Source: Eledone cirrhosa
Taxonomy: Eukaryota
DNA: 64,000 bases
Assembly (NCBI GenBank): GCA_964016885.1
Contig: OZ024744.1
Location: 57,784,001 to 57,848,000 of the forward strand
Direction of reading: 5' to 3'
Numbering within the stretch: the stretch's first letter is position 1; the number at the start of each line of letters is the position of its first letter. The notes under the pieces were generated by a model, which was given only the letters and a program-made list of their open reading frames with translations, was not told the DNA's origin and did not search any database. Both the position numbers and the translations under genes were made by a program. Shown one piece after another: positions 16,167 to 64,000 of the stretch.

Positions 16167-17725
16167 TTGCATTTATCTTGCTTTATGTTTATACGAGTTA
16201 TCACCAAGTCACAACCAGTGACCTCAAGAGACAACAAGGTCCGCCATGTTCAAGAAAGAACACACATATTCACACATGCATCCTTAGTGTTTAGACTTGT
16301 GATGTACTTATATTGACAGGATCTTCCTTAGTATATGGGCAGTTCCCATTAGTACTATCTTTTGTATTTCTCCTATACGCGGGTTTCCTGGGATTTGCGA
16401 TAAGTAGTCGTTAGACCCCTTAGGTATCATTCCCAGAGCGCCTACAACCACTGGTATTGTTTTAGTTCTCAATTTCCACATTTTTCCAATTTCTATCTCC
16501 AGGTCCTTATACTTGCTCAATTTTTCAAATGTTTTTATAGATACATTCTTGTCTATTGGAACAGACATATCAATTAGCAGGCATACCCTCCTTTGAAAGT
16601 CCTTCAATATTATATCAGGTCTATTTGCATCTATTTTTCGGTCTGTTTGAATGCTAAAGTTCCACAAGATTGAGATGTGATCTTTTTCAAGTATGGGAGG
16701 TGGTTGATGCTCCCACCAATTCTTTTGATGGGGCAGGTCAAAATGCTTGCACATTATCCAATGTATGTATTGTGCAGCTCTGTCATGCCTGTTTAGGTAT
16801 TCGGTTGGAGCTATAGGACTGCACATTGAAATTATATGGTCAATGGTCTCTGGTTGTTTTTTGCATACACGGCATAATGGGCTGCACCCATTTTTTATTA
16901 TGTTGGCTTGGTAATTTTTTGTTGGCAGACACTGATCTTGTGCGGATATAATCAGTCCTTCAGTCTCCGATTTCAGTCCAGAGGATGCCAGCCACTGATG
17001 GGTTAAAGTTTTGTCAACATCAGGATTGTTAGCTCGTTCTGGGTATTTTCCATACAGAGGCTTTTCTTGCCATTTCTTAGCCAGTTTCTGTAGCAGTTCT
17101 TTCTTTGCAGTTACTTTTACCTGCTTTGCTTTTTCTGTGTTTTCCATTTCAGCAGTAAATGGGACTTCTGAAATTTGTAGTCCATTACTGTATCTTTGTG
17201 CATCTTTTGTAATGGAATATGATCTTTTGGTGCTTTCGTATTTCAAAACGAGTTTGATCATCCAATCATGTGATTCCCTTAGATATGTGGATAATCCAAT
17301 TGTTGCAGTTTTCAACGCAATGTCTAACTGGATTAACCCACGTCCTCCTTCTTTCCTAGGGAGATATATTCTATCTATGTCTGCCTTAGGGTGATGCATT
17401 CTGTGCATGGTTAAGAATTTTCGGATTTTTGTATCGAGCCTACGGATCTCTGTGCTTGACCAGTTGATGACATTGTAACTGTAGGTTACTACTGGTATGG
17501 CAAGCGTGTTTATGGCATCGATCCTATTCCTTGCATTCAATTCCATTCTTAAGATTGCTCTGACTCTGCGGTAACATTCCTTCCTTATCCTTTCCCTCAT
17601 TGTCGAGTGCTTGATTCCGTCTCCTTCACAAACACCTAGATATTTGTAAGTTTGTTCTTGATCAAGCTCTCTTATCACGTTCCCCCGATCAAGATTAATG
17701 TCTGAACTCTTCAGCAGCTTTCCTC

Positions 17726-17726
<1 letters not shown>
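16167..17726 (-). mobile_element. R4/Dong-like element copy 2, more strongly 5'-truncated (ORF 16308-17678)
   Basis: Only a handful of amino-acid differences from copy 1. (TTA)n flanks both sides. Confidence 0.92.
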
Positions 17727-17778
<52 letters not shown>

Positions 17779-17779
<1 letters not shown>

Positions 17780-17833
17780 GCAGTTTCAGTAGAGCGTCAG
17801 ACCCCTATGCTTTGCAGCATAGAGTTATGGCTC

Positions 17834-24584: not shown

Positions 24585-27500
24585 TTTCTTTATTAGCCAC
24601 AAGGGCACAAAAGAAGGGGACAAATACAAATGGGGAGTTTACATACAGGTATATGAGAATAAAACTATTACTAAAACAACAAATAACAATTGAAATCCCC
24701 AATAGGGGGGAGGTGTTACACAGGGGTTGTACACACCCCGAAAAATTGTATAACCCTCATCTCCAGGAGTGAGTACTCCCTTCCACTCTTCCTCTTTTTC
24801 CTCAACCTACAGGCTTATATAGAGAGAAGGCCCAACCACTCGGGCCTTCTTTGCCACATTCAGCCACCTTTCATAAAATTTGCTGGGGTACAACACCTCT
24901 CTCTCCATCCTGATTCTTCTTCCAAAATGATATTTGAAAAAACGAATCAGTTGTTCGCCTTTTGTTCAGCCCTTTTAACCTCGTCCCCCATATAACCTCT
25001 TTCACCATAGCCATAACACATAGGAAAAACGCCTCTCCTTCGTTTTTGAAGGAGGGTGGCGGTTTGATCATGACAATGGACTCGGTGGTCAACTGGATTG
25101 GTCCCACCCGCGATAATAGTCGTTCTACATAGCCCCACAGGTTGGTAACGCCCGGGCAGTGTACAAATGCGTGCGCGACGGTTTCCTCGTCGCGCACGCA
25201 TCTCGGACAGATCTTTTACGAAGGGTCCCTGCCCGGGCGCCCATGTCTGTAGATCTTGTCTCGAACTGGTAGAACTCTCGGTAGCACTGCCAGGCCAGGG
25301 ACTTTTGGAAATTGTCCATCGGTCCCGGGCGGAAGGTCCTACCGAACAGACTGGCCAGTTCGTCCTCCTCTATGCCCAGAGTTTCTCCGAGCGCGTCGTC
25401 GCACAAGCTGCGGACCAACCCTCTATAGAATGACGAAGTGGAGTCTTCACTGATCGCCGGGTTGTTTGCCAGAGGACTGAGCGCCTGAGCACATTCGATG
25501 TGCCAGTCGCCCATTTTCCTCGGTATTTGCTTGACCCAGGACTGCAGCTCGGTCAGCGAGACGAGTCGTGGGAAGGCTCGCCTCACGAACGGAGCCCACA
25601 CCGGTTGTCCGGTGAGGAATACGTTGAGGTGCTGCAGCCTGAGCGCGTGTTTGCGCATCGTCAACCACGGCATCCCCAGCCCTCCGTTTGAAGGGTGTTG
25701 GCAGCAGATGGATCTTCTCACCAAAGGAGCCCGTTTCTTCCAAAGGAATTGGAAGAGCGCGCGCTCCATTTTGTTGAGCGTTTTGGCTGGACAAGGCACG
25801 ACGGTCAAGCGGTAGTAGATGACGGACGCTATAAAAGTGTTCGCCACCTCCGCTCGACCTTTCAAGGATAGTTTGCACTCGGCCCACTTCTGGGTGAGCG
25901 CAAACAACTTGGCCGTCACCTCGTTCCAGTTTTTCTCCACCTGGAGGTCAGGACCAAACCAAACCCCGAGCAGCTTTACCGGTCCTTCCGTCCAGCGTCT
26001 GACGACACCATCGGAGGCATTGGTTTGCCTCTCCACGTTCCGAGTTGCAAACCGACGGACTTGTCCCGGTTCAGCTTCGCTCCTGTGAAACTTTCGTATT
26101 CCTTCAGTAAGGTGCCGACCTCCCGGATTTGTGAGGTGCTCGACACCATTACTGTCAGGTCGTCGACTTAGGACAACGCTGCTTTTCGCAGTCCCTGTTC
26201 CAAAGGGATGCCCTGCAATAGCTCCAACTTCCGCGGTAGTGGCTCGAGAGTCAGTACGTACAGAAGGGAGGAGAGAGGGCATCCCTGTCGGATGGATCGC
26301 GTGATATAGAACGGCTCCGAGAGGTAGCCGTTCACCTTGACCCTTGAGCAGATGTTGCTGCTGTGCATTGCAGCAATCCAACCCCTGAACACGGGTGCGA
26401 CGCCTGGCGCCTGGAGCACTGCATCCAGGTAACGTTGGTCAACCCTATCGAAAGCCTTAGACTGATCCAAGTTGATCAGGGCCCCACCGAAGCCGGGTTT
26501 ATACCCTACCCTCTCTATGATGTATCGCATGAGGTGGAGGTTGTCGTGTATGGAACTGGTCTGGATTGCGCATGTCTGCGATTCTCCCACCAGGTTTTCG
26601 ACGACAAGCGCCAGCCTCTTTGCCAACACCTTGGCCAAAATATGTAACTCTGTGTTTAGCAGAGTTATGGGCCGGAAGTTGTCGTCCCTTTATTCTCGTC
26701 CTTCCTGACTAACGTGACTACGCCCTTGGTCACAGAACTGGGAATTCTCCCATTCTGCTACCAGTTGCAGTAGACCGTTTCCAGGAGACCGGAGAACAAG
26801 TCCGGCATTGCTACGTAAAATTCGTATGGAGTCAAGTAGCAAGCGTCCGTCTTGGTCCTTCAAAGATCGAATCGTGGACTTGTTGCCACTTTTCGCCTCT
26901 GTCACTCGGGCCTAGCTAACAGCTTTCGTTGCCTCGTTTCCCAGAGTACGTATTTTGCTCCTGACAACGCAACCTTTGTGCTTTGCGTCGAAGAACTGGT
27001 CCAAGGCCGTTATCATCGCAAGCACGCTGGCTCCGTTGCCACTCCTAAGTGCCTCTTCTACTTTATCTACCAGTTCCTCTTCGGTCTTATTTCTATCTAA
27101 CACTAATTCTTTACTAAAACCTATCGAGTCTAATCTGAATGCCCTCTTAAGAGAGTACCATCATCTGTTGTTGACAATGGCCCCCGTCAAGTGCTGCTTA
27201 ACTAAAGTGCTAATCCGTCCGGCTTTGCAAGTCGGTAACGACAAGTTCAGCTTCCAGTAGCCGAGTCCCTGTCTATGGGTTCTATCAAGGTTGACTAAGT
27301 AGGTCACTAGTTTGTGATCTGAATAGGCAACCATGAACATTTGTGGGCAGCTTAACATGTCCCTATCACTAACTCTAACTAGAAACCTATCTAGGTACGA
27401 TCTAGATGTTCCGCTGTGGTTGTTCCACGTCCACAGTGGCACAGTTGGAAAATCTAGTCGATATCTATCGGCCATATGAAATCGGCCGATTAACTGTTTG

Positions 27501-28400
27501 AGGCTGTTACAACCCCTCTATCGGGACATGCTCCCACATAGTCGCAACCTGCATCTAGGATTCCATTCCAGTCCCCCACTAACAGCAGGGAGCGGGACGT
27601 TCCCAGAAAGGTCTCTAGACGTTTGAAGAAGTCTGGCCGCGGTGTCCCGGATGGGGCATAATCAACCACCAGCCTTAAGGCTCCACCTTCCCTACCGTCA
27701 ACGTCTAGGACCACTAGTCGACCCTCCGGGTCCAGATGTACCGTCTGTGTTACGAGGTCCAGGTGTTTCCGCAGCAAAACAGCAACCCCGCCCCCACCTC
27801 CCGGCTGACAGAGAGATGCGTAGATCTCAAAGTCGTCGAAGATGGGGGGGCCAGTTGTCGCTCGCTGTGGATCCTGGACTCGCAAATGGCTACTACATCC
27901 ATACTGTGCGACCTGAGGTCTTTTAAGAGTTTGCCCTGTTTCCAGGGCATCCCCAGGCCGCGTACATTCACACATCCAACTCTTATATTGGCCATGTTGG
28001 TTCTGAAAAGTTAAAAGAAGAGGAAAAGAAATCACTCACCTCTTCGTCTCCTGGGGACCAGGCTGCACAATTTCCTTGGGGGTGTTGGAGGGGTTGTTTG
28101 GTGTGGTGGTGGTTTCTGGCGGGGTGGGGACGGAGATGCTTGGTGGGAGGGGGTGTCTGGGGGGATGGGGGTTTCTGGGGTGGGGGTGGGGAAACATTTT
28201 AAAAGGACGCGGTTAATGGGTTTAACGCAAGGATTACCCACGTCCTTAGGAATGTTTTTCTTTAAAGACTTATAGGTGTCCGTGGAGACCCTAATCATCT
28301 TTAAATTGGGTCTGTCTAAACAGTTCGAAAAAGTTTTCCCTTCGGTTTTCACCGAAGGGTCGTAGGAGATGACCTCCATTAAGGTTTTGTTTTCACTGTT
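24585..28400 (-). mobile_element. Tx1/L1-like LINE: ORF1 C-terminus plus complete but disrupted ORF2 (APE-RT-CCHC)
   Basis: MANIRVGCVNVRGL (27995), LVGDWNGILD, SYLDRF, SDH, LDQSKAFDRVD, RQGCPLS and KLLGVWF; many frameshifts. Confidence 0.92.
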
Positions 28401-30431: not shown

Positions 30432-33400
30432 ATTGAAACCTCAACCCGATTTTTTCAAGGACCAGCTGCTACGGACGGTGACTTACCGCACCGTAAGCAA
30501 AATCTCATATCGGGTGGAGAGAGCCACGGAGGCTCAAATCCAAAAGGCCTTGGGGTGCGTCTGGGCACGCAAAACCCACATCACCCGAGGCAGAAAGTAC
30601 GCCACAGTAGAGGTACTTTTCGCCACCCCCCAGGAAGCGAAGTCTCACTCTTTGGAAACCCTAAAGAGTGAGGAGATAGTCTTGGTACCCTCCTACTGCG
30701 GGCAGAAAATTATGAGGGTCAAAGTGACCCAGGTCCCACCCGACGTGCCCATACCTTGGCTGGCCGCGTCTGTCCTTGCTGGAATCGAGGACAGGACGAC
30801 CAAATAAGGAGAGAGAACTGGTCAGGTATAGACATGCAAATGCTTATAAAAACTGACCAGGATGTATCTACCCTATCCCCGATATCATAGACATCGAGGA
30901 AGGACTCCAACTCCCTATAAGCGTAGAAGGAATATGGCCAAAATGTTATCTCTGTGGGTCGAAAGGTCACCTCAGGGCCTTTTGCCCGCAGAAGACAGCA
31001 AAGAAGAAGGCCCCTCTCCTGCCAATACCTGGTCCGCTGCTACCAAGAGCAGGGCAGGCAACAAACGAAGAAGCCCCTTCCACGGTGAGTAGGAGGGCAA
31101 CGTCCGTGGCGCCCATACCAAGGCCACGGACGACTAAAGCAGCATCATCAGTGGCGGCAACACCAATAGCTACATTTGACGTAGCTACACCAGCAACAAA
31201 TATGCCGAAGAGGGCTCCACTACCACCACCAACAGCCGTGGAGCACATACCCCTCCCAGATGCCACGGAATCCGACATGGAGTTTGAGGCGGGAGTGAAG
31301 TGACAAACGGTCTGCCACAAAAAGCGAAGGCACACAAAGAGGGGTAAAGGCAGCAAGGAAACTTGCAGCAACACCACCAGCATCACCCTCACCACCACAA
31401 GCACCACCGCCAACAACAACCACACCACCACCAGCATCACCAAAAACACCAACAACGCAAACAAAACGAAACACACACACCAAACAGCAACAAGAAGAAA
31501 ACAGCAACAAAATCACCCCTCCCCCCAAAAAAGTACACAGCCATAAACATGGCAAAAAAAGAACTCATACAATATATAAAGCAGCACACAGACATCACAG
31601 AAAAAAACTACTACACCCCACCAACACCAAGAACTCTCCCGACAAACATAAGCATCATTGAAATCTCAATAGAACAGTACAAACCTTTAAAACAACAATT
31701 CCCCAACGCAGTTGGAGACTTCAGGGGGTCGGTTACCAAGAGGATATACACTGACATCCTCTTGGAAACACCCATGACCAGCCAAAGGGACGATTCTACT
31801 GTCCCTTCACCACACGATCAAGGTAAGTGACCCTTTCTCACTTGCCCCGTTTCTCATCCAACATGGCCGTACTCAGAATAGGCAGTATAAATGCACGTGG
31901 CTGGGGTCATCTGGGAAGCAGGGTCACTAAACATAGATGTGATGGCCATCAGCGAGACCAAAATCTCCGAAGCACAAGCCTTCGCACCGATCTTCGGTGG
32001 CTACGATTTATACGCATCTCCCAGCCGTCCAGGATCGGGGGGAGGGGTTGCCGTCCTTTTTTGGAGAGGCTTGGATCTCGCCATACGGGCCATCTTCCTA
32101 GACCCAGAAGGTAAATCGGTGGTGCTGGACGTGACCGGCAGCGAAGGCAATGCTTTCAGACTAGTAGCCGTCTACGCCCCAACAAGGGCAAGACGGCCAG
32201 ATTTCTTCTGACGTCTAGAGATTTTCTTGGAACGTCCCGCTCTTTAGTGTTAGTGGGCGACTGGAACGGTATCTTGGATGCACGCTGGGATTGTTTGGGG
32301 CTAGTGGATAGAGGAGGAGGGTGCAAGAGCCTCACCAACCTGCTCAGACGTTTTGAACTGTCTGACAGGTATCGACTGGATCACCCGAATGTGCCAATGT
32401 GGACTTGGATAAACCGCATCGGTCATCCAGATCGTTGACCACAATTTAAAATAGTCGACTACACAGACCATAAATTTGTGATCTGTGAATCGGCATAGAC
32501 AGACTTCATAGACAAGGGCCCGGTTACTGGAAGCTGAACGCGTCTTTCCTGGCGCGCAAAGCCTACAGAGACCGGATTAGCGTATTAGTTAAGCGGGCAT
32601 TGACGGGAGCGGTCGTCTACAACAGGTGGTGGTTCGCCCTGAAAAGGGCAATTAAAGTAGAGTCGATTAGGTTTAGCAAAGGACTAGTGATAGAGGAAAA
32701 TAGAGTTGAGGGAGAGCTAGACAGAAAGCTAGAAGAGGCGTTTAGGACAGGCATCGCAACCGACGTGCTTGCGGCGAGATTGGCACTCGACCAATTCTTC
32801 AACGCAAAACACGAAGGCTGCGTTGTCAGAGCTAAAGCGCGTGCTCTGAAACACGAGGAGACAAAAGCCGTCCAATGGGCCCGAGTGGCAGAGGCGCGAC
32901 GTGGCAACAAAGCGACAATTCGGTCTTTGTCTGACCAAAACGGGTGCGTGTTGCTGGAACCCGAGCAGATGTGTGAAGCTTTTCAGCAGCACTTTGCTGA
33001 AATGTTCGGGAGCAGCGGCGGCCCGGATCGGGGCATGGACTTCAGTGCATACCTCGACGGACTGCACAATGAAATACGGGAAGCGATGGCTAACTGCACG
33101 AGGGGTAAATCGCCAGGTTTGGATGGTCTGCCTTACGAGCTTTATGCATTTATGCCAGAAGTGTTCGGTGACCTCTTGGATACGTCTACTGCAACTGGCA
33201 GAAGAACGGGAGCATTCCCAGTTTGTGAGCCGGGGAGCAGTGGCGCTGCTGAGAAAAGACCCGAACAAGGGGGATATTATCGATAATTTCAGGCCCATAA
33301 CCCTGCTAAACGCAGAGTTCAAGATTTTGGCCAAGGTTGGCGCTTGTCGTCAAGGGTCTGGTGGGAGAGGCGCAGACATGCGCCATTCCGGATGCGATAC

Positions 33401-35428
33401 ATCATAGAGAGGGTGGTTAGGGAACCTGGCACGGGTGGGGCCCTGATCAACTTGGATCAATCCAAAGCATTCGATAGGGTCGACCATCGGTACCTGGTGA
33501 CGGTCCTCGAGGCAGCCGGTTTCGGGCCTGTTTTCAGGGGTTGGATCGCTGCGATGTACAGCAACATCTGCACAGTTGTGAGGGTGAACGGTCACCTGCC
33601 GCAGCTGTTCAGCATCATGCTCTCAGTCCACCAGGGTTGTCCCCTGTCGTCCTTCTTGTACGTATTGGCTCTCGAGACGTTACTGCAGAAACTGGGGGCG
33701 ATGAGGGGCGTCCCACGCGAACTAGGATGCGGGAAATCCGAGTCGGCTTACACCGACGACGTCACCGTGGTAGTGTCGAGCACCAGACACGTCCAAATGC
33801 TCGGTACCGCTCTCAAGGAATACGAAGCGGTGACAGGAGCAAAGATAAACCAGGAAAAGTCGGTGGCCTGCAGCTCGGCACCTGGAGAGGAAAGTCCATG
33901 CCGTCCGACAGCGTCGTGGGGCGTGGGACGGACGGATCGGTTAAATTGCTCGGGGTCTGGTTCGGACCGGACCTCCAGATGGAGAAAAACTGGAATGAGG
34001 TGACGAGCAAGGTGGCCTCCCTCACCCAGAAATGGGCCGAGAGGAGGCTGTCCCTGAAAGGCCGGGCGGAGGTGGCGAATGCGTACATCGCATCCGTCAT
34101 CTGCTACCTCCCCACCGTCGTCCCTTGCCTCCTCTTCCACTTTTTGTGGAAGGGACGCGCTACCATGGTCAGACGATCCATCTGCTGTCAACACCCGTTG
34201 CGTGGAAGACTGGGCATGCCATGGCTGATGATGCGCAAACATCCGCTGAGGCTGCGACATTTCTGCTACCTCCTTGACGGTGAACAGGTGTGGTCGCCGT
34301 TCGCCAGGTACGTTTTCCCACAGCTCGTCTCCTTGACGGAGCTGCAGTCTTGGGTCAGAAAAAGACTGAGGGATAGCGCTTGGAAACTGGAATGTCTCCA
34401 GGCGCTCACTGCCCTCTGCAAGTTGGGCACCAGTATCGGTGGAACATCCACCTCGGTGTTCTATAGAGGACTAGTGGAGGGGAAGACGACGTTCTCGGAG
34501 AGATCCTGGGCGTCGAAGAAGATCAGCTGTTTGCTCTCTACCGGAGAACTTTCAGCCCAGGGCCTATGGATAACTTCCAAAAATCCCTGGCCTGGCAGTG
34601 CTACCGGGGAGCGCTGCCGGTTCGAGATAAGCTCTCCAGGCACGGAAGTGCCGTCAGCCGAGCCTGTCCGAGATGCGCGCAGAGCGACGAAACCGTCGTG
34701 CTCGCACTCGTTCAGTGCCCGCGCATTGCTGACTTGTGGAGCTATGTCGAACAGTTGCTGTCGCGTGTAGGACTGATCCGGTTATCGACTGAGTCGATTG
34801 TGCAGATGGTCTCGCCGTTTTTTTTCGAGGAGGAAGGGCAGGCGGTTTTCATCTGCTTGGTGGCCATGGCGAAAGAGATTGTGTGGTGGACAAGGTTGAA
34901 AGGGTTAAAGACAGAGACTTTCCTCTTCGGCGAATCCCTAATTAACTTTTTCAAGTTTCATTTGAAGAGGAAAATCAGGAGGGAGAGGCAAGTGCTGCCT
35001 TCTAGCAAGTTTGTTGAAAGGTGGGTGAATGTAGCGAGAATGGTCCGAGTGAACGGGACCTCTCTGAATATACGTCTGTAGTTTGAGAAATGGAAAAATT
35101 GAGAGAGGGTGCTTGCCCTGGTGGTCAGGGTGGCCGTGGTCTTTTGTGTGGTTTTCGCCACGAGTAACCCTCGGTTTCCCCCCTATTGGGGAATTTTTCA
35201 TTGTTTCAATTTTCATTTTTATTGTTTATATATATATATGTTTCTATGTCTTTTTTTTCTTTTCTTATATAAATAATGATTTCTTTATTTATTGTTTATT
35301 TATTCTTTTCTTATATAAATAATAAAAATATTTACACGCACAAAACCCACATCGTACCGTCCTGTACCGTGCTGTACCGTCTGTAATGTTTTTCTTGATG
35401 TCAGCCCTTGTGGCCAATAAAGAAAGCA
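30432..35428 (+). mobile_element. Near full-length Tx1/L1-like LINE, disrupted
   Basis: ORF1 region 30433-31830 has the zinc knuckle CYLCGSKGHLRAFC (~30943). ORF2 runs from ATG 31863 to 35081 with APE (VGDWN), RT (LDQSKAFDRVD, QGCPLS, YTDD) and CPRC. The 3' end 'cccttgtggccaataaag' is followed by (ATT)n. Confidence 0.92.
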
Positions 35429-39974: not shown

Positions 39975-40373
39975 TTACACTGTCTTTTGGCAAAGAGTCA
40001 GTCCAAACTTATTCATAAAGCTGGTGCACCACCCTGCTGACGATTTAAATTGGGATAAGTGGTACTTTGGTGCAAGTTGAAGAGCTTTTGTTCTTATAGA
40101 AAGTCTTGTAACAATGTGTCCATTTTTCCTGATATCTAAAACCCAATCATTTAGCTCTTTTCCAAGATCTTGATATGGTGATACTCCAAACCTTGCTACT
40201 CTCTTTGATTTAGGCATTTCTCCCAGCTTGTCTTTTTGTTTCCTCCAACCTCTCACCACCTTTTCTGACACTCCAAACTCCCTTTCTGCTGATCTATTTC
40301 CAAATTTTTCTGCATAACTAACCACATTTAACTTGAAAACTGTTTGATAACTTTTTCTCTTACCAGAATTCAT
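39975..40373 (-). CDS. Transposase N-terminus only (Brinker-like HTH + CENP-B/Tc5 HTH); no DDE domain
   Basis: RKSYQTVFKLNVV...GNRSAEREFGVSEKVVRGWRKQ...ELNDWV...FKSSAGWCTSFM. Confidence 0.8.
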   Translation of the reverse strand: MNSGKRKSYQTVFKLNVVSYAEKFGNRSAEREFGVSEKVVRGWRKQKDKLGEMPKSKRVARFGVSPYQDLGKELNDWVLDIRKNGHIVTRLSIRTKALQLAPKYHLSQFKSSAGWCTSFMNKFGLTLCQKTV

Positions 40374-40547
40374 ATTTCTCAGTGAATTATAAAAAAAATT
40401 TCAACTATCAACTTGTCTCACTTGCTAATTTTGAAAAGAAACGCCACATGCAATAATCTGTTTCCTGTTAAAGTAAATACGTCACAATATGTGTTCATAG
40501 CAACGCTAAGACAATGAAATCACATTTTAAATACCGGGTATGCATTT

Positions 40548-43119: not shown

Positions 43120-46100
43120 CAATGGTGGGGCACCATTTTATTAAATTATGATTTTAAGCTGGAGTATCTACCATCTAAAAAATTAGGACACACTGGTGTT
43201 CTATCAAGATTGGTACTTAAAAATAGTGAACCATTTGAAGACAGAGTGATCACGACATTAAGAGCTGAAAAAAAAAAAAGAAGTATATTGTGTAATGTAG
43301 TACGGGAATTGCGTGTTACCTTAGAAGAAATAAAATTCAAAGCAGAAGAAGACATTCTTATTACTAAAATGAAAAGATTACTGAGAGCAGAAAAAGTAAA
43401 TAAACACATGCGGTTTGCAGAACACAACCCAGATCGAACTCGTATTTAATTTGTGACAATGTACTGATGTATACACAAAGAGTAGTAATACCGGTCACAC
43501 TACAAAAGTGAATATTAAAAGAATTTCACAATGGTCATCCGGCAGTATCAAGAACGAAAGCTCTTATGACAAGTTATGTATACTGACCCAAAATAGACCA
43601 AGTTGGTAAAATTCTGCAGAGCTTTTGCTCTGGCAGCAAAATTGCCTACCACAAAATTTCAACCTTGGCCACAGACAGATATTCCATGGTCCAGACTACA
43701 TATAGATTTTGCAGGTCCACTAAACAGATCACATTATCTTGTAGTGGTAGATAGCTTTAGTAAGTGGCCTGAAATTTCTAAGTGTAAAAAACCAACCTCC
43801 TCGTGTACAATAATTTTTTTTACACGAATTGTCTGAAAGATTACTAAATAAGGAGAATGCATGGGAAAAAGAGAGCCCACCCCAAGCGGACCCTATAGAG
43901 GGACCAGCAGCAGCATAGTAAGTAAGGCAATCAAATATATGAAGACAGGGAAGGCAACCGGTCCACTGAGTATAGCTGCCGAGATGCTGAAGGCATCTGG
44001 GTCGGTAGGTCACACCATAACCACACAAATTGTTAACCAGGTAATACTAGAGGGTATCATACCAAAGGATTGGTGCAGCTGCAGCATCATTGTCAATTGC
44101 TACAGAGGTAAAGGTGATGCAGTAGATAAAGGAAACTATAGAGGCATAAAGCTGATGGACCAGATCATGAAAGTAACGGAAAGAGTTATAGCACAATTGA
44201 TTAAGGACCGGGTGAAACTAGATGAGATGCAATTTGGGTTTGTACCAGGAAGGGGCACCACTGATGCCCTCTTGAGGCAATTACAGGAAAAGTACCTAGC
44301 TAAAAGTAAGCCGCGCTACCTGGCATTCGTCAATCTGGGAAAAGACATCGACAGCGTCCCCCGTGCTATAATCTGGTGGGTTCTCAGAAAATTGAAAGCT
44401 GTACAGCCATGTATAGAGGAGCAGTCAGCAAAGTTAGAGTTAGCAATGACTATAGTGAGGAATTTAGCATATAGGTTGGTGTCCACCAGTGCTCTGTTCT
44501 TAGCCCTCTCCTGTTCATTATAGTTTTGCAGGCAATAACGGAGGAGTTTAAGACCGGATGCCCATGGGAACTCCTATATGCGGATGATCTCGCACTTATA
44601 GCAGAATCCATGGTGGAACTAGAGAAGAAATTCCAAACATAGACGCAGGGACTAGAAAGAAAGGGTCTGAAAGTCAACATGACAAAGACTAAGGTTCTTG
44701 AAAGTAGATGAGAAAACAGAACCCAGGTCCCCTCAGGGAAATGGCCTTGCTCAGTATGTAGGAAAGGTGTAGGTAGGAACTCCATCCTCTGCCCCAAATG
44801 CAAACAATGGGTACACAAGAGATGTAGTGGGATATCAGGAAGCTTAACTTAAGAAAGAATGTAGGCTTCACATGTAACAGCTGCACCGGGACAGCAAGCA
44901 GCAAATAGCCAGAGAAAACAAGTACGACCAAACTCTGGGAGGGCTCTGTAGAAACAGTAGACAGCTTCTGCTACCAAGGTGACCGAATTAGCAGCGGAGG
45001 TGGGTGTTCAGAAAGTACAATAACTAGGGTAAGAACGTGATGGAAGAAGTTCAGGGAGCTACTGCCACTGCTAGATGCAAAAGGCTTTTCCCTCAAAATG
45101 AAAGGCAGACTGTATGATGCGTGTATACGAACAGCAATGTTACATGGTTGTGAGACCTGGGTGCTGAAGGTGGAAGACTTGCATAGATTAGAAATAAACG
45201 AAGCTTGCATGCTCCGATGGATGTGTAATAGTAATATACGCGAACGGCAAAGTATAAACGAATTGAGAGAGAGACTGAGCATAAGAGGAATCAAATGCTG
45301 TGTGCAGGAGAGGAGGTTGCGTTGGTATGGACATGCGATGCGTATGAAGGATGACAGCTGCATAAAAAGCTGCAGAGCACTAGAAGTCGATGGAAGCCAC
45401 GGAGTGGAGAGACCCCAAAAGACCTGGGATGAGGTGATAAAGGCCGACCTTACCCAATTGCAACTCTCAAGGGCAATGACACACGACCGTGACTTCTGGC
45501 GTCACGCAGTAATACAGAAGACCCGACCCCCCACAGGAACAAGCCGAAGCTGAAGCATATAGACAATATGCCCCCTCCCCTCCCACTGCAAAGTGACCGT
45601 AGAGGTGCCAAAGCAAAAAAGCACCCAACACTCACTCTAAATGAGGTTGGTTTTAGGAAGGGCATCCAGCTGTAGAAATCAAGCCAGAATCAGTTCCTGT
45701 ATGAGCAAGACATGGTAAGCTGACTGGACACTGCTCACAACAGGACAACCCGTCTAACCCATGCTAGCATTGAAGAACTGATGTAAAACGGTGATGATGA
45801 TGATGAAATGATATTCTTGATACCATAGTTTCTGATAATGGGACACAATTCATTGCCTATAAATTTAAAAGATTTTGTAAAATGTTCTCTATTGGAGATG
45901 TTACCACTCCACCGTATCATCCAAAGTCAAATGGATAAGTGGAATGGTTTGTGGATACATTTAATGGGGTCTTAAAGCAAGCAAACAATGAAATAGATGA
46001 TTTAGCACTTCAACAAATCTTACAAGTATACCATGTAACACCTAATCCTAATACCCCTGCAGGCATGGTACCTGTGGAATTGATGTTCGCAAGGCAGATT

Positions 46101-48772: not shown

Positions 48773-49415
48773 ATCATCATCATCATCACGGTTTTACGTC
48801 CGTTCTTCCACACTAGCATGGGTAAGATGGGTTGTCCTGCTGACCATGTCTTGCTAATATGGGAACTGATTTGGGCTTGATTTCTACAGCTCATTTACAG
48901 TGTGGGCTGGGTGCTTTTTTGCCGTGGCACCTCCACGTCCACTTTACAGTGGGGGGGGGGGGGCATATTGTCTATATGCTTTGGTTTGTACCCGTGGGAA
49001 GTCGGGTCTTCTTTATTACTGCATGACGCCAGAGGTGACGGTCCTGTGTCATCCCCGAGGGGATCTGGGCTCTGTTTTTTCGTTTACGCACAAGGACCTT
49101 AGTTTTTGTCAGGTTGACTTTGAGACCCTTTCCTTCTAGTCACCTGCTTCCATGCTTAGAATTTCTTCTCTAGTTCCACCATGGTTTCATCTATTAGTGT
49201 GAGATCATTTGCATATAGGAGTTCCCATGGGCATCTAGTCTTAAACTCATCTGCAATACTATAATGAACAGGAGAGGGCTAAGAACAGAGCCCTGGTAGA
49301 CACCGACCTTTATGCTCAAACCAAATTGCATCTCACTTAGTTTTACGCGGTCCCTAATCAAGTGTGTTATAACTCTTTCTGTTAATTTCATGACCTGGTC
49401 CATCAGCTTTATACT
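48773..49415 (-). mobile_element. Internally deleted RTE fragment
   Basis: 3' UTR reverse complement plus IKLMDQVMK...GVYQGSVLSPLLF. Confidence 0.8.
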
Positions 49416-49416
49416 T

Positions 49417-49695
49417 TGGTTCGTGGAAACGTTCCCTGGCAAAGAACGGGAAAAAACGAATATAATACGTCATTATTTGGAGCGGTGAAAAACAATTACA
49501 CGTAAAGACAAAACCACATTTATGGTATAAAAGAAGTCGTAGACTAATATTCTATTAGGGGGTTCATAGAGACGCTCTCTGGCAATGAACGGAAAAAACG
49601 AAGATAATACGTCATATGTGGACCGTAGAGAACAATTGCATGCAAAGACAAAACCACGTAAATGGTATAACTGAAGTCGTAGACTAAAATTCTAA
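49417..49695. repeat. Two ~140-bp tandem units, with a third partial copy at 51252-51347
   Basis: 'ggttc.t.ga.acg...ctggcaa.gaacgg.aaaaaacgaa.ataatacgtcat...aagtcgtagactaa.attcta' is repeated. Confidence 0.85.
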
Positions 49696-50299
49696 CTAGG
49701 AAACCGAATGATTCTCGGCTTCAGAGTTAAGAATAAAGTAAATAAAATACAGAGGTAATTGAAATTAAATAAATACATACACGCATCCATATACGTACAT
49801 ACACAAGCATACGCGAAAACACTCGCCATAGGTATACAAATACACGCACATATAAATATGTGTGTGTGTGCGTGTATACAAATAATTAAATAAACGTATA
49901 TAAATAAATAAATACGTATATAACAAACGCACACACATACCTACATGTAAATACACATATGTTCGGAGACGTACGTCAACCAAAACACGAAGTACACATA
50001 TACACACACCCTACATACGTACGAACCCGCATACTGACACAGACGCAAAACTCACGTATACACATAACCAAAAGCATATGTACCAGAATATATAAAATAT
50101 ACGCCATAACATATACAATCAAATATACGTACGAGAAAGTATACGTACCTTCACAAATCATACAGGTAATATATACCGTCGAAACGGCTTGAGCTCAGCT
50201 GTCGGGGTCTTACTGGTTCCTATTACCCACTCTACTACCTCAAGTATTGAGTACTTTGGTGCGTTATGGTCCACCTGGTTCCTTACCACATTTCCTTCG

Positions 50300-50930: not shown

Positions 50931-51016
<86 letters not shown>

Positions 51017-52452
51017 ATAATAATAAATTTGAAGACTAAAATCCAAAGAGGGCTCGATAAGGATAAATATATATCAAATATATAAGAACCGTAGAGCAAA
51101 TATTTATTAAAATAACAGATTAAAGTTTAAGCAAAGAATCGCTGCTTTCACCCTTAACGGGATCTTCTGAAAAATAACAAAGTCAATCTGTGATCGCAGA
51201 AGAGAATATTTCAAAAAACGTTGCAACAGGAGGAAGACAGGAAGACGATATTTTGGTTCGTGGAAACGTTCCCTGGCAAAGAACGGGAAAAAACGAATAT
51301 AATACGTCATTATTTGGAGCGGTGAAAAACAATTACACGCAAAGACAGTTGATTGTATTTATTTGTTTTATTCTATATTCTATTTACTATTCACTGTCTG
51401 GCTTCGCTCACTCATCCACACATGTCTGTCTACTAACCTTGTAATTATAAGTATTTATATATTTTATGCCAATTTTAAAATATATTACATTATGATATAG
51501 ATCCTTATTACTTACCGTTTATTATATATAACATTATGATATTTAAACTTTATATATCATGTAAGATGTCTGGATTTTTTAATATTTTAATATTGTAATA
51601 TGTAACATTATGATATTTAGACTTTACATATCATGTTAGATGTCTGTATATTTTTTTCTGTAACATCATATTTTTTCTGTAACATCATAATTGTTCCCTG
51701 TACCATTATAGTTTTTTTGAGTATTATATTATATGATTTATATTTCCTCATTTATTATGTAACCCAGTATGAATCATTTTGTACATATTGTTTATGGTAA
51801 TTTGTTAATATAATGTTAACATTTTATCATTGTATTTCATTGACATCTATATTGTTTCTGTAAATTAACCGGGGATTATCTATTCTACTTTATTATATTG
51901 TATTGAATTATATAATTTTGTTGTTTATTATTTGTTATAAGTGTTTCTTGTAATTATATCATATTATTGCCTCATGTATATTGGGTAGATGTATTAGCAT
52001 TATTTTCACTATTACCATGCTTATTTTTAATATTCAAACTTCTAATAGGGCTTAATTTCTGTGTAATAGAACATAGATATGTGTATTGTTATATGTGTGT
52101 GTGTGTGTGTGCGCGCACATATATACATGTATATATTGTACCTTTTGATTTTTAATTTGGAATTTTAATGTTGGTATAAATATATTATTATTATAATGTA
52201 TTATATTGTGTTATATATAATTCCTGCTCTATATAACCAAATTTGTTTAGATTTAGGTTGGTGGCTTTGGACTATATTTGTAATATGGTTCTTAATGTTA
52301 TCTACATCCTTAGTTATTATAATTTTATTATTTTTATCTTTATTTTCATTTTTATTATCGTATATCTTTGCAAGACATTAGTGTATGTACACTCCATATT
52401 CTTCAGAGTTTCTGGCTTGTATCTGCCGATATTACCTCTTGTTGTTTTGATT

Positions 52453-52490
52453 GCCCTGATGAGTCCTAAATAGGACGAAACATTGTCGGC
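52453..52490 (+). ncRNA. Canonical compact type I hammerhead ribozyme followed by AATAAA
   Basis: gcc-CUGAUGA-GUCCU-aaau-AGGAC-GAAA-C-auu-G-UC^ggc-taataaa. All core nucleotides are intact, the triplet is GUC and stem III is minimal. Confidence 0.92.
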
Positions 52491-52546
52491 TAATAAAAAC
52501 TTTTGATGTATTAAAGGATTCTTTGTTTTACTCTCTTAATTTTTTG

Positions 52547-53019
<473 letters not shown>

Positions 53020-53070
53020 TGAAGAATTATGAAAATAATGATGTATTGAAGGCTTCTTTGATTTATTTTC

Positions 53071-53147
<77 letters not shown>

Positions 53148-53256
53148 AATTAGTATATCTATCAACATATTTATACAGAAGTATACTTATGCTACCAAGA
53201 TATAGGTTTTGGGATCCCTGTGTCCGCCTATCGCCAGGGATCTTAGCAGAGAATTG

Positions 53257-53334
53257 GCTCCCTGATGAAGAAAGGAATTCTCCATGGTTTTGAACACTAT
53301 GTATATCCCCTTTCAGAAACTAATTAGTTGTAGT
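53257..53334 (+). ncRNA. Type I hammerhead candidate with a long stem II, in a cassette (53145-53457) between TA arrays
   Basis: gctcc-CUGAUGA-a-gaaagg...catggt/actatg...cctttc-a-GAAAC-taatta-GUU^gtagt. Stem III is the palindrome aactaattagtt; stem I pairs 4 of 5. Confidence 0.65.
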
Positions 53335-53484
53335 GAAACCAAAGTAAGTAAGTTAATTATTATGATTTTCTTATTTTACGTCTTTCATATAATTGTTCTA
53401 CATTTTTGTATTGAACCACAAAGTTACTAAGACAAAACCTATATCTTGCCAGCATAAGTATATATATATGTATATATATATATG

Positions 53485-53839: not shown

Positions 53840-54000
53840 GTAAATATACACGGGTGTGTATGATTGTGTATAGAAGATTATATTAATAAGAGGAATTCCA
53901 ACTTTGTCTGATTTACTCGTTTTATTTACAATCCTTTAAAATATATATAATGGTATTATAATGAAATAGTATGATAGAATATTAAATTCTAAGTGTTAAT

Positions 54001-54039
54001 TGAACAAGCACTTTCATGCTTTCGCAATCTTCAGGTTCA
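54001..54039 (-). ncRNA. Minimal hammerhead (no stem II) in the PLE 3' pseudo-LTR
   Basis: The minus strand reads tgaac-CUGAAGA-ttgc-GAAA-GCAU-gaaa-GUGC-UU^gttca, with a 5-bp stem I and 5-bp stem III. Confidence 0.85.
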
Positions 54040-54419
54040 TAATATGTGGTGACAGTCGAGTTTGCAATTTTCAACTGTAATGAGATGGGTAAATTTCCTA
54101 TCTTTTATACATTTTTTACAGAGAAAAGTGGCTCCAGAATGCTAAGCCCTGTAAACTGTATTTCGACCAATCAGTGTGTAGTTTCACTGAATTACTACAG
54201 CTGATTGGTTTAAGCGTCACGGCTGGTTGAGCATGCTAACGACCAATAGTCATATCCAACGTATCAATTGTTTTGCTATGATGAGAAATGATGAAAATAG
54301 CATTTTCTATTAATCATCACCATCAACATCACTTTTATTATTATTATTGTTGTTGTTGTTGTTGTTGTTTTTAGTGGTCGTGGTCATAGTGGTAGTAGAA
54401 GTAATACCCCTAAACGTTA

Positions 54420-57400
54420 TTATTGTTCATTTAGCTTGGGTTTGAATTTATTAATAAAATTCTTTTCTTTGATTTTTCTCTTGATTTCACTTGGGCTGTG
54501 TAATTTGTAGAATGGGAATATTATAAATATTCCCTGACCACATGTTGCCAGGTGGCCGCTTAGGGGTATCTGACGGACATTTGGGTCTCTGATTTGTTGA
54601 CGGTGTACCCGTGCACGTTCCGATAGTGCATTTCCAGTTTGACCGACATATAGTTCTTCACAATTCGGGCATTTAATGCAGTAAATTAGATTTCTGCTTT
54701 TGCAGTTCATATTTGCATTTGGGAGTATTTTTCCAGTTTTTGTTTTCATATATTGACCGGCGTGTATGGATTGACATGTGCCGCATCGACTATCATTGCA
54801 TTTAGATACAGTGAATGATTGGTCTTTGTTGTTAAGGTCAAAACTTTGCTTTTGTTAGTAATTGCTTCAAATTTTTTGGCTGTCTTTTACTAAGAGTCAA
54901 AGATCGATCTGTGATTAAGCCTTTTAATTCATTACTTTGAGCAATGATCGGTAGGTTTGCTTTGGCAGTGTTGAAGATATTCTGGTGACATGGGTTGTGT
55001 GTCATTATAAATGGTATGACCAGTTCTTGGTTTCTTCTTCCTTGGGTTGTTCTAAGTTGTTGTATAGGTATTTTTATAGCCCGCTATATGCCATTTTCTA
55101 TAAGTAGAGATATGTATTTTTGTTTGAGCAAAAATTCTCTTTGTTCTGTTAGGCGTTTGTATCTTCTACAATGGTACAAATTCTTCTGGCTAGGCAGTAT
55201 GGGATGTTGCGTTTTGTATGAGGTGGATGGTACGACTTAAAATTCAGATATTGATGGGTGTCTGTGTGTTTATAATATATATCCGTGGTAATGGTGGTGT
55301 CGTTTTTGATTATCATTATATCTAGGAATGGTAATTTGGTCCTACTCATCTCTTTTGTGAATTGGAGAGATGGGTCTAAGTTATTCAGGAGGATATTGAA
55401 CTCATCCAGAGTATCTAGAGATTCTGTCCAGATGATGAAACAGTCGTCAAGGTATCTCTTCCAAGATTTTTCAATGTACTTTCTAAAGTCAGTACTATAT
55501 TTTTCCTCTATTTCTTGGTAGAGTTGTTGTTCTAAGTATCCCATTACAGAGTTCGTGTAAACGGGAGCAAACTTCGTTCCCATCGCTGTGCCTCTAATTT
55601 GGATGTAATTCTTTCCATTGAAGAAGAAAGTGTTGTTTTCCAGAATAAGTTTAACTGCGTCTAATATAAATGGCGCTGTGAATCTAATGGGAATCACTTC
55701 ACTATGTTTTTCCACCCAGTATTTAACCGCCTTTATTCCTAAATCATGTGTAATGTTGGTGTAAAGGCTTACCACATCAAAACTGAGTAGAAGTGAATTC
55801 GTTTCCGCGATTTTGGGAAGATGGGACAGGAAGTCGATATCATCCCGGATGAAACTGGGTATATGAATACATAGTGGTTTCAAAATAATGTCAACAAAAT
55901 TGCTTAGACGGTGAGTGGGGCATGTTGGACCAGCTATAATAGGTCTAAGTTTTAAGTCTTTTGGGTGTAATAATTTAATGTACTCACTGTTTTGTTCTCT
56001 TACTGCCAGCTGTATTTCTTTTGACTTGTGAACTTTCGGTAGGCCATACAGGTTGCTGGGTTTCGGCTCAAAATTGGTGATGTAGTCTCTTTCCTTATCA
56101 GTAAATGAGTTGTGGTATTTTGAAGCCAGGTTGTTGATCTTCTTCATGATGTTGTGGTCTATATTTGACGGTATTTCGTGATAGAATGTTGTGTCTTTCA
56201 GTTGTTCCTCAACCAAATCCTTGTAGTATTCAGTATCCATTATAACAACTGCACCCCCTTTATCTGCTTGTTTAATTATTATTGTTTTATCATTTTGTAT
56301 ACGTTTAAGTGCAGACATTTCTGATTTGTTAATGTTTGGCCTAACATTAGTATTATGTCTAAGAGGAAATGTAGACAGGATGTCAATGTATTGGTCGAGA
56401 TAAATATTTCTTCCTTTTGGCGGAGTGAAATTTGATTTATTCTTTACTAGTGATTCATCACTCTCATTATTTTTATCAGCGAAGAATTCTACAAGACGTA
56501 ATTTTCGACAGAATTCTTGGGTATCCTCCTTCAGTTCTTGGTGGTTGACTGTTGGAGTCGGTGTGAATTTCAGTCCTTTTGACAGAATTTGCATTTCATC
56601 ATTGTCAAGATCTCTTTTAGATAAATTAATTATTTTAGGATCTACGTGTACAGCTGTTTTGGGTATGTTTCCTCCTGGAGTTTTTCTTTTTCCGGTTTTT
56701 GTTGTCCTGACGTTAAAAAATGGATTTTTCTCTGTTCAGGATTTATATTCCTGTTGGTGTTCGCTTGATGAACTTTTGGTCGTGATATTATATTTGGTTT
56801 CGTTATGTATTTTGTCGTATTTTTGGTATTCTGTATATTATTTTTCTTCCTGTTAGCATTATTTTTAACAATCTGGGAAAATGACCTAGGTTTGCTTTCA
56901 GGTTTAGATCGTTTTTTCGTCCAGTTTCTTGTGGGCAATCTCTGTTGAGATCTTGAGAGTGATCTGGTTATTCTACGTTTTGTTTCCACATTCCTTGTTG
57001 GTAGTCTCTGTTGAGATCTTGAGAATGATCTCCTGGTTTTACTACTTCTCATGGTCTGGTCAAAGGAATATCTATCGTGTTTGTGCTTTTCGTTCATGTT
57101 GTGTGCGATAGGGTGTTTTTGTAGAAAAAGCGAAGAGTTATTACCGTAGTTCTTCTTTGATTCAAGGTAAGGTGAGTGTTTGTGTTGGCACGTGTTCTGG
57201 CGTATGTTGTGTTGATGAGATTGTCCACTTTTAATGCTTTTTCTCAGGGTTCCAGAGTCTTTACCGTAATTTGCCGCATATTCATCGAGAAATAATTGTT
57301 TCTGCTGCCATACCTTTCTTGATTTGTTTTCTTCTTTTGAGATATCTCCGATCCATAGTTCTCGTAGTTTTTCAGCTATAATACCAGTCGTTAGCTTTGA

Positions 57401-57430
57401 AATTTCAACTTCAATTTGGTCATCAATAGC

Positions 57431-58889: not shown

Positions 58890-59620
58890 AGAGAAAGGGT
58901 CAAACTAGATGAGATGCAGTTTGGTTTTTTGCCTGGGAAAAGTACAACATATGCCCTCTTCTTGGTGAGACAATTACAAGAGAGGTTCTTAGAGAAGAAG
59001 AAGCCACTATACTTAGCTTTCGTCTGGTGGTCATCTGGTGGTCCCTAAAGAAACTAGGTGTTGACGAATGGCTTGTGAGAACAGTGCAAACTTTGTACAG
59101 AGGTGCTGTCAGTAAAGTGAGGGTAGGAATGGAGTTTAGTGAGGAATTCCAGATACAAGTAGGAGTACATCAGGGTTCGGTCCTCAGCCCGCTCTTGTTC
59201 ATTATAGTCTTCCAAGCCATACAGAGGAGTTTAAAACTGGCTGCCCATGGGAACTTCTCTATGCTGACGATCTGGTTCTTATAGCAGAATCAGTAAAGCA
59301 GCTAGAGAATAAATTCTGGCTATGGAAACAGCAGTTGGAATCAAGAGGAATGAGAGTGAACCTAGATAAGACAAAAGTGTTGATGAGTAGAAAAGAGGAC
59401 AAAACTCTGATTCTATCAGGGAAATGGCCATGTTCGATATGCAGAAAAGGAACTGGCATAAATTCTATAAAATGTACACAATGCAGATCTTGGGTACACA
59501 AGAGGTGTAGTGGGATACCAGGAAAACTAACAGGTAGGGAGAAATACGTATGCAGATGTACATGGAAATTAGACAGTAGAAGTCGCATTGATAAACACAT
59601 TTTTCAAATCCAGGTGGGTT
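58890..59620 (+). mobile_element. RTE RT fragment
   Basis: LDEMQFGF, GVHQGSVLSPLLF, LLYADDL, KWPCSICRKG. Confidence 0.85.
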
Positions 59621-59668
59621 AGTCAGGTCTTAGATATGATAGTGTTGATGGTATCAGAGCCTTGGGAC

Positions 59669-61611: not shown

Positions 61612-62000
61612 TATATATAATGTTTATAGTTAAACAGGGTTATAGGGGAAAATATTCACGATGCCCCATTAGTCTCATTACCCACTCAATGAGACGAGAT
61701 TTCATTACTCACTCAATGAGACAAGATTTCATTACTCACTCAATGATACAAGATTTAAACATATTAAACATGTAAATATATACTCAGAGTGCTTACCAAA
61801 GGTTATTTGTAATGAGTGTGATTGCACATTTTCTCGGACAATGGTTTCCATGATATAGTCTGATAAAGTAAGTATGTTGTAGTGCACCTGAGCACTGTAC
61901 ACAATAATTTTCATTATATTATATTTGAAACTTGTTTCTCAATAGCTACATGGTATAAAAACTACAGACCATCAACTGGGGCTCTCAGCACTTTAGTAGG

Positions 62001-64000
62001 TTGCCATATCCCATCTTAGGAGCGGATTTCCTCCACAACTTCTCTTTAACTGTGGACGTCCGTGGCCAACGCCTGGTGGATAACATCACCGGCTTTTCAA
62101 TTCATGGCCAGGAAGCCAATGCCCCAATAGTCAGCCCCATGTTCTTTATCACTGCCGCTGGAGACGCCTACCATGCGTTACTGGGTTCTTTCCCGGAGCT
62201 CACCGATGGAAATTTTCGAGTCACTGACCCAACACACTCGACCGAACATTTCGTTTCCACCACCGGTGCCCCAGTGTTTTCGCGTCCACGCCGCTTACCG
62301 ACGGAAAAATTAAAGGCAGCACGGTCCGAGTTCGACCATATGCTGCAGCTGGGCATTATTCGCCCATCTACGAGTCCTTGGGCTTCACCGTTACACATGG
62401 TGCCCAAGACTTCCGGCGACTGGAGAACCACTGGGGATTATAGGAGGTTAAATGCCATGACCGTCCCGGATAGGTATCCCATTCCCCATCTCCACGATTT
62501 TGCATCTTCACTGCAGGGGTGTAAGATTTTTTCTAAGTTAGATTTAGTGCGAGCCTACCACCAAATTCCGGTCAGGAAGGAGGATATTCCGAAAACGGCG
62601 ATTACAACCCCTTTCGGATCATTCGAATTTTTTACCATGCCTTTCGGACTCAGAAACGCCGCTAGCACTTTTCAGCGGTTCATAGACGAGATTCACGCGT
62701 GGTCTGGACTTCGTTTATGCTTACATAGACGATATTCTCGTCGCTAGTTCCTCTCCGGAAGAGCATATGCGCCACATGCTTCTCTTATTTCAGCGACTTC
62801 AGGATTACCGCGTTCGTGTGAATCCTACAAAGTGTGTTTTCGGTTCCACTTCCCTACATTTTTTAGGCCACCTCATCGACGCCGAAGGTATTAGGCCGGT
62901 CCCTCAGCGAGTTCAAGCCATACAGGAGTTACCTCCGCCTACTACACTTCACCAGTTGCGTCACTTCTTAGGCCTAATCAATTTCTATAGGCGTTTCATT
63001 CCTCATTGTGCTAATTGGCTATCTTCCCTTACTGACATTTTAAAAAATCGTCGTAAGAAGAATGAAGACATTTCCTTGACACAAGGACAGCTTCAGGACT
63101 TCCAGACTGCCAAGACAGCACTCGCTAGTTCATCTTTGCTAGCCCACCCGGTACCAGAGGCCAAGCTTTCGCTTTGTGTTGATGCATCTGATACCGCTGT
63201 AGGAGCAGTTTTACAGCAGTCTTACGCTGAAAAACAACAACCTTTGGCATTTTTCTCGAGGAAGTTGAAACCAGCAGAAACGCGTTATAGCACGTTTGGG
63301 CGGGAATTATTAGCCATATATCTGTCGGTTAAACATTTCTCTCATATTCTTGAGGGGAGAAATTTTACGGTTTTTACCGACCACAAGCCGTTGACCTTCG
63401 CTTTGAGGGCCAAAGCCGACAGATATTCGCCCAGAGAGACAAGGCACCTGGACTACGTTTCACAATTTACAAACGATATCCAGCACATTGCCGGCTCGCA
63501 TAACATAGTTGCAGACGCATTATCACGTTTGCCAATTAGCTCCATCTCGTCATCCCAGGAGATCGACTTAGGTCGTTTAGCTGCAGACCAACCTGCACTC
63601 CAATCGTTGGACACTCTTTCTACTGAATTTGCGACTTGCATTTTCAAATATCTGCCCTTGTCCACCACCGACAAGCAGATTCTATGTGATGTATCTACTG
63701 ATGCACCACGACCATTTGTTCCTGAGACTCACCGTCGAATTGTGTTCCTGGCTTTGCACAACATTTCTCATCCAGGATCTGCTGCCACAGTTAAACTCAG
63801 TTATACAGCCAGATTCTTCTGGCCAAATATGAGGCGCGACATTGCTGCTTAGTGCCGTTCCTGTATCGCTTGCCAGAAATCGAAGATCCATAGACACATC
63901 GGGACTCCACTTGGTACTTTCAGTACTCCAGATGCTCGGTTCCAACACATCCACATTGACATCGTTGGACCTTGGCCATTCAGCAGTGGATATTCTTACA
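62001..64000 (+). mobile_element. Ty3/Gypsy LTR retrotransposon pol (protease end, RT, RNase H, integrase start); frameshift near 62690, stop at 63850; runs off the window
   Basis: [82 protein letters not shown] and HIDIVGP. Confidence 0.95.

Follow-up and report, generated by a model that had tools for sequence, protein, structure and literature searches.

A hammerhead ribozyme motif followed within a few bases by the hexamer AATAAA raises the question whether cleavage could cut the upstream RNA off its poly(A) signal. Such an arrangement was found in a 64-kb stretch of Eledone cirrhosa DNA (contig OZ024744.1; the entire stretch is referred to as the window, and positions are those of the window unless a locus is named), and a sequence-only reading of the stretch had implied a switch of this kind. 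As described below, the hammerhead almost certainly belongs to the pseudo-LTR of a Penelope-like element (PLE), and it is likely not a host-gene switch.

Identification and anatomy of the hammerhead

The sole Rfam match within the window was to Hammerhead_1 (RF00163), located at 52450-52494 on the + strand. It scored 37.8 bits (cmscan, E 6e-6), above the gathering score of 34, which confirms the presence of a hammerhead where the sequence-only reading had placed it. A relaxed hammerhead descriptor gave two matches in the window and a single one across 20 shuffled windows, thus the motif is not a chance occurrence. The sequence contains the elements characteristic of RF00163, i.e. the CUGANGA and GAAA boxes, an NUH site and three stems, of which stem I is open (type I). 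NUH is the general rule for hammerhead cleavage sites.

All parts of the motif are on the + strand. The 5' strand of stem I (52445-52455) forms three core-proximal G-C pairs, whose pair probability in folding was about 0.9, and then a weaker AU-rich extension. The first box of the catalytic core, CUGAUGA, occupies 52456-52462 according to both the Rfam match and the fold, and is followed by stem II (52463-52476), which consists of 5 bp with pair probabilities of 0.87-1.0 and a 4-nt loop of a rare variant. The GAAA box, stem III and the GUC site are contained in the segment 52477-52487, with the cut predicted between 52487 and 52488. In the fold stem III has 2 bp (52480/52486 and 52481/52485) and a 3-nt loop. 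The 3' strand of stem I (52488-52498) includes the AATAAA (52492-52497), which starts at the fifth base after the cut. The 5-bp stem II, the GUC site and the distance of the hexamer from the cut are as the earlier reading had given them. Its 2-bp stem III was also found, but the near-palindrome of 7 nt, which it had assigned to the loop, spans stem III together with the loop.

The window copy clears the Rfam cut-off only because of an uncommon T>A substitution in its loop II. The common loop II was present in 51 of 52 sampled copies of the same family and the loop of the window in none, and ten loci carrying the common family form gave no Rfam match because this form scores below the cut-off. 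A genome-wide search with RF00163 yielded 18 matches among 74 scored of about 415,000 candidates, a number that does not represent a total. In a second subfamily, about 85% identical to the first, the cut site is GUU instead of GUC (32 of 33 copies); the C of GUC (52487) is part of a CpG. The hammerhead core is unchanged between the two subfamilies.

The parent element

Searching the 3.0-Gb genome for exact matches to a 32-nt core pattern of the hammerhead gave 1115 matches, and the reversed control none. Two pairs of copies (tandem loci L031 and L032) were about 4.85 kb apart with a long ORF between them, and thus the parent element, for which the earlier reading had suggested a genome search, was found as full units. 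In L031 the unit is 4862 nt long; an ATG located 230 nt past the cut opens an ORF of 898 aa, whose stop is 1935 nt ahead of the next cut. The hammerhead is present in both repeats of L031 and of L032, and the arrangement pLTR-ORF-pLTR was seen in L031, L032, L035, L065 and L080.

The window copy (51348-52641, + strand) is 97.3% identical to the L031 unit along its whole length and corresponds to unit positions 3545-4862 of 4862, which identifies it as the 3' end (3' UTR / pseudo-LTR) of an element truncated on its 5' side. Its 3' boundary is ambiguous by 3 nt against a TA repeat (BLAST end 52644). The approximately 1 kb of AT-rich DNA noted earlier upstream of the hammerhead is indeed there, but the alignment identifies it as the 3' UTR of the parent retrotransposon rather than as anonymous non-coding sequence. 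No second hammerhead of this family was detected within the window. A retrozyme array was considered and rejected, there being a single hammerhead of the family in the window and a repeat unit of 4862 nt with an ORF.

With the parent ORF as query, 808 homologues were obtained at E<=0.001 among 7998 scored candidates, some of them with a GIY-YIG domain (PF01541, e.g. P0001); a named one comes from Argonauta. Its identity with the RT of a second PLE in the window was 22% (E 1e-7). A Pfam scan of the parent ORF itself returned no family, and a PDB profile search gave a single weak match (E 0.38), which was disregarded. The motifs RWR, DKT, YRDD, CxCX5C, YIG, CxxC and CxH were read from the ORF and from an alignment comprising seven of the 120 listed homologues. 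The element shows the features of an EN+ PLE: RT and a GIY-YIG-type endonuclease combined in one ORF, partial-tandem pseudo-LTRs holding the hammerhead, inverted truncated copies and a one-sided tail. The diagnostic motifs of the Hydra clade, as given in section 11 of PMC8557442, were also found. These are RWK (here RWR, a conservative change), DKT in place of DKG, the CxCX5C linker, and CxxC plus CxH around the E/N residues of the endonuclease. By eye, a Cys pair conserved between GIY and YIG, as in the CCHH motif, is missing from the alignment of seven homologues, in contrast to the Neptune-like endonuclease of the second PLE in the window. Insertion into (TA)n is a further Hydra trait, and all 49 terminating copies that were inspected end on TA or TG repeats. 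The length of the unit (4862 nt) exceeds the <3 kb typical of Hydra elements, a trait that does not define the clade. These motifs suggest that the parent belongs to the Hydra clade.

Open frames of 915-916 aa were found at seven of 150 scored endonuclease matches, from which we infer that the family is young and may still move. The clade is already known and the family itself appears to be new; it was set apart from Hydra-1_Obim by eye. Identity with Hydra-1_Obim was rejected, the hammerhead and the ORF being visibly diverged. A search of the supplement of PMC8557442 for the core gave one match, whose surrounding sequence is different. PLE families have been annotated in Octopus vulgaris, and this family may be one of them. 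A literature survey, whose scope lay outside subscription journals, Repbase and Dfam, retrieved nothing published about this family, nor any description of a PLE hammerhead with a poly(A) signal inside it. At some 5' junctions the copies looked like SINE-PLE chimeras; this was rejected in favour of later insertions, as in L015 and L026 the element resumes beyond the insert with an overlap of 16-19 nt.

Ends of the copies and insertion sites

The survey of the ends covered 51 of the 1115 cores, contained in 40 regions and all belonging to contig C1 and to the first 100 of the list; 37 of the regions were taken in list order with one already-included match skipped, and three were chosen as pairs. 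The copies fall into two length classes behind the ribozyme. Thirty-four of the 51 end 45-55 nt past the cut (about 53; equivalent to 52532-52542 in the window) and 15 end 154-157 nt past it (about 155; 52641-52644), whereas two run on into the ORF. All 51 continue through the cut site and the AATAAA. The 49 terminating copies all adjoin TA or TG repeats, and poly(A) was seen at the end of none. In the window the repeat is a (TA)n/(CA)n microsatellite (52642-52920), the insertion target.

Poly(A) sites are typically located 10-30 nt past an AATAAA. Since both kinds of end lie behind the cut and the AATAAA, and since the copies continue upstream, the template must have been intact, or re-ligated, at the cut, and it did not terminate in the stretch 10-30 nt behind the hexamer. 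The same genomic ends would result from a circular template that had been re-ligated. The implied switch between cleavage and polyadenylation is not supported by these copies.

Outward-facing pairs of copies had one short and one long end in nine cases out of nine. Among the first 100 listed cores, inspected by eye for neighbours within 6 kb, 32 were in 16 outward-facing pairs and four in two direct tandems, and there were no inward-facing pairs. The segment between the two fixed 3' ends, which are the putative start sites of reverse transcription, forms an optional tail of about 101-104 nt (52541-52641, + strand). A bulged hairpin is predicted in it at about 52593-52632 (+ strand; -15.7 kcal/mol); about 10 nt separate it from the long 3' end downstream. 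It is missing from the MFE structure of the second subfamily, and folding predicted no comparable hairpin ahead of the short end.

In L032 (2875-2950, + strand), and equivalently in L031, the stretch of 73 nt that separates the long end from the ATG closes with a pyrimidine tract and AG. This sequence, lying just before the ATG, is a possible 3' splice site; Penelope has an intron in its 5' UTR.

Neighbouring elements in the window

The window contains several other elements. The second PLE mentioned above is frameshifted and extends over 53850-57420 on the - strand, with RT at 55149-56735 and a GIY-YIG endonuclease; by eye its Cys-rich linker and CCHH-type residues are Neptune-like. Its 3' end carries a minimal hammerhead (core from 54034 downwards) missed by Rfam, and adjoins a TA/GA repeat. 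Two segments on the - strand, 51012-51347 and 49411-49860, are 3' ends of another repeat family (1113 candidates), which has ORF pieces about 30-58% like the Hydra ORF at ten of 19 other loci and a hammerhead-like motif in which U is replaced by A at core position 2 in 17 of 18 inspected copies, a change shared across the family. The 51012-51347 piece joins the window copy head-to-head at 51347/51348, with TA repeats on both outer ends. The junction resembles an inverted pair of two different families, and no such pairing was seen at the other 19 loci.

On the distal side of the microsatellite, a tail-only fragment of an older subfamily of the parent element (52918-53038, - strand, 88% identical) enters the 52642-52920 repeat from the opposite direction. 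A decayed hammerhead of a further family (53210-53457, + strand, core at 53262) adjoins a TA repeat; it has a long stem II and a palindromic stem III of 10 nt, and intact relatives are present in L035 and L038. Two decayed hammerhead-like copies at about 2245 (+) and about 2800 (-) have downstream sequence in common. Remnants of mobile elements with LINE-type RTs, a Tc5/pogo-type transposase DNA-binding domain and LTR-type RT/RNase H/integrase occupy 13296-17804, 25125-28035, 33287-35081, 39975-40400, 43852-45553, 58913-59622 and 61959-63852.

Predicted folding and cleavage

The minimum free energy fold of the monomer (-10.0 kcal/mol) buries the core by pairing it with stem III. The catalytic monomer fold has -4.1 kcal/mol and a probability of about 1e-5, and the pair probability of stem III in the monomer was 0.0. 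When stem III is exchanged between two copies, the catalytic dimer reaches -17.9 kcal/mol compared with -8.2 kcal/mol for two catalytic monomers, a stabilisation of 9.7 kcal/mol. These values agree with the earlier description of a type I form with a weak palindromic stem III that reportedly needs dimerisation. Two misfolded monomers (-20.0 kcal/mol) and a dimer formed through stem II (-26.3 kcal/mol) are lower in energy than the catalytic dimer, thus rescue by dimerisation is only partial in the prediction.

Weak behaviour of the dimer type has been reported for metazoan PLE hammerheads (PMC4209133; PMC6765202, a review that also covers the work of Lunse et al. 2017 on these ribozymes), and the predicted fold fits it. 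The folding model supports a cleavage that would be weak and assisted by a dimer partner or by protein.

Mechanism and alternative explanations

The reading that we regard as probable is that of a type I hammerhead in a truncated stub of a young Hydra-clade PLE, inserted against a TA repeat and cutting weakly with assistance. Judging from the predicted folds, the help would likely come from a second copy or from the element's protein. By analogy with Penelope and with Anolis Poseidon, a tandem copy would be transcribed from the upstream pseudo-LTR, the endonuclease would nick the (TA)n target, and reverse transcription would begin inside the RNA at either of two sites behind the ribozyme. From there it would go back across the AATAAA and the cut site, which requires that the template be intact at this place. 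Priming on both target strands would create the outward-facing pairs, in which a short end is combined with a long one, and an early stop of reverse transcription the solo stub seen in the window. The slow cut of the ribozyme would trim or clear tandem transcripts and would be dispensable for each insertion; the ribozyme of the Anolis element is reported to cut only with protein and not to be needed for insertion in vitro (PMC11167929). The A-rich hexamer would be explained largely by its pairing with the T-rich 5' strand of stem I.

The same copies could also have arisen by a route centred on cleavage, in which the pair of hammerheads in a tandem transcript would excise the 4862-nt monomer. 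This would be ligated into a circle, and reverse transcription around the circle from the +53 and +155 sites would make the partial tandems; the AATAAA would then be irrelevant. Circles of this kind have been proposed for PLEs (PMC4209133), both start sites would fall just behind the junction, copying of more than one unit would yield the pLTR-ORF-pLTR arrangement of the five loci named above, and the identity of the core between subfamilies that are about 85% alike also speaks for this route. However, the catalytic fold is disfavoured in the monomer as well as in the dimer, and in the Anolis experiments described in PMC11167929 ribozyme mutants left insertion unchanged and no reads began or ended at the cut. 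We consider this route unlikely.

The position of the hexamer suggests another possibility, namely that AATAAA is the element's own poly(A) signal, gated by stem I. In the paired state the signal would be hidden, so that the upstream pseudo-LTR does not stop transcription and the RNA reads through to the start sites of reverse transcription; in the unpaired state it would end the protein-coding mRNA. Five of the six AATAAA bases are predicted to be paired in the extended stem I (probability of being unpaired 0.03-0.31), a U-rich tract follows, and the hexamer is retained by 49 of 52 copies of one subfamily and by 33 of 33 of the other. The 2092 nt behind the ORF contain no other sense AATAAA, as against 12 on the antisense strand; yet 0.93 sense occurrences are expected there by chance, and six unchanged bases are unremarkable at about 85% identity. 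An ATTAAA found at 52510 was rejected as a signal for the short end, as it is lost in the second subfamily. The 11 main variants of the stem I extension include one pair changing between U-A, U-G and C-G and one between G-U and A-U, a covariation that is consistent with the stem but not significant (90 of 500 shuffles).

Comparison with other hammerheads is similarly two-sided. When the hammerheads of the sampled loci were grouped by eye into 13 families, AATAAA or ATTAAA was present at +5/+6 past the cut in four families and straddled the cut in two more, a frequency higher than T-rich composition alone would give (about 2% per 30 nt). In L040, which is more distantly related, ATTAAA has the same offset, and two other families have AATAAA at +5/+6. 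Against this, some of the families bearing the hexamer are related to each other, the 3' strand of stem I has to be A-rich where the 5' strand is T-rich, and in the listed 3' sequences of the published table, read by eye, only one of 26 Hydra rows has AATAAA and two have ATTAAA. From the sequence, AATAAA may be the element's own poly(A) signal, but a signal of this kind gated by stem I is improbable. A generalised form, in which this and several other PLE families of the genome have their sole poly(A) signal inside stem I and the fold chooses between polyadenylated mRNA and a read-through RNA that retains the start sites of reverse transcription, appears slightly more doubtful still.

As for the switch implied at the outset, it is not supported at this locus, where the upstream RNA would be the 3' UTR of a transposon and the AATAAA is predicted to be paired in stem I. 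A related explanation is that this copy was recruited into the 3' UTR of a host gene and that its cleavage removes the poly(A) signal, as it does in the Clec2 hammerheads of mammals. In favour of this are the succession of cut site and AATAAA and the Clec2 precedent (PMC2950038). But the copy is 97% identical to its family over the whole length, stands amid other transposon remnants, is solo and has a monomer fold predicted to be inactive. Moreover, among 65 longer non-microsatellite ORFs (64 chosen from the 132 of the window and the parent ORF from L031) Pfam found only mobile-element domains above the cut-off, a scan in which small exons would be missed. Recruitment by a host gene is thus very hard to believe, and the weakly cutting ribozyme of a PLE stub is the reading that we retain.

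As one stub in a family of over a thousand copies, the single locus carries little weight. The family offers useful material: it is young, several of its full-length frames are open, and about 104 nt lie between its two sharp ends behind the ribozyme. It could therefore serve to test whether the internal-priming model, which comes from one Poseidon element, extends to the Hydra clade. If a poly(A) signal gated in stem I were real, it would bear on what PLE hammerheads are for, and if stem I chose between RNA forms, these hammerheads would gain a structural job independent of fast cleavage.

Comparison with known systems

The Clec2 3'-UTR hammerheads (PMC2950038) share with this locus a cut site upstream of a poly(A)-type hexamer. 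According to that report they are discontinuous, reside in host mRNAs and have had their effect tested, whereas the present motif is part of a high-copy transposon with no host gene found. Metazoan non-LTR retrozymes (PMC7229834; bioRxiv 10.64898/2026.07.22.740005) likewise have an RF00163-type hammerhead in a non-coding repeat. As described there they are short tandem arrays, in contrast to the one ribozyme here, whose fragment is collinear with the 3' UTR of an element that carries an ORF.

The likeness to the PLE pseudo-LTR hammerheads described by Cervera and de la Pena 2014 (PMC4209133) is much closer and includes the type I topology, a short palindromic stem III, mostly solo truncated copies, pairs on opposite strands and an expected weak, dimer-dependent cleavage. 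The hammerhead of this family differs in having a short 5-bp stem II without an extra base before 10.1, which brings it nearer to the canonical metazoan form, and in having AATAAA in stem I. With the Hydra-clade PLEs of Craig et al. 2021 (PMC8557442), among them the Octopus bimaculoides element Hydra-1_Obim, the family shares a single ORF with RT plus a GIY-YIG-type endonuclease at the C-terminus, the motifs RW[K/R], DKT, CxCX5C, CxxC and CxH, (TA)n targets, a type I hammerhead near the 3' end whose palindromic stem III surrounds one central base, tandem and inverted insertions, and a one-sided tail. Hydra-1_Obim itself has a hammerhead and an ORF that by eye are visibly unlike those of this family. 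The unit is 4.86 kb with a 3' UTR of 1.9 kb, whereas Hydra elements are described as 'generally <3 kb'; the ORF of 898 aa contains an insert of about 110 aa compared with homologues of about 700 aa, and the tail measures about 104 nt instead of the 30-40 bp reported.

Poseidon PAc of Anolis carolinensis (Frangieh et al. 2024, PMC11167929) likewise has two fixed 3' ends bounding a tail, and there the ends were mapped to internal starts of reverse transcription. In PAc, as reported, the starts fall within the ORF, with the ribozyme overlapping its start codon, whereas in the family described here both ends and the ribozyme are located upstream of the ATG.
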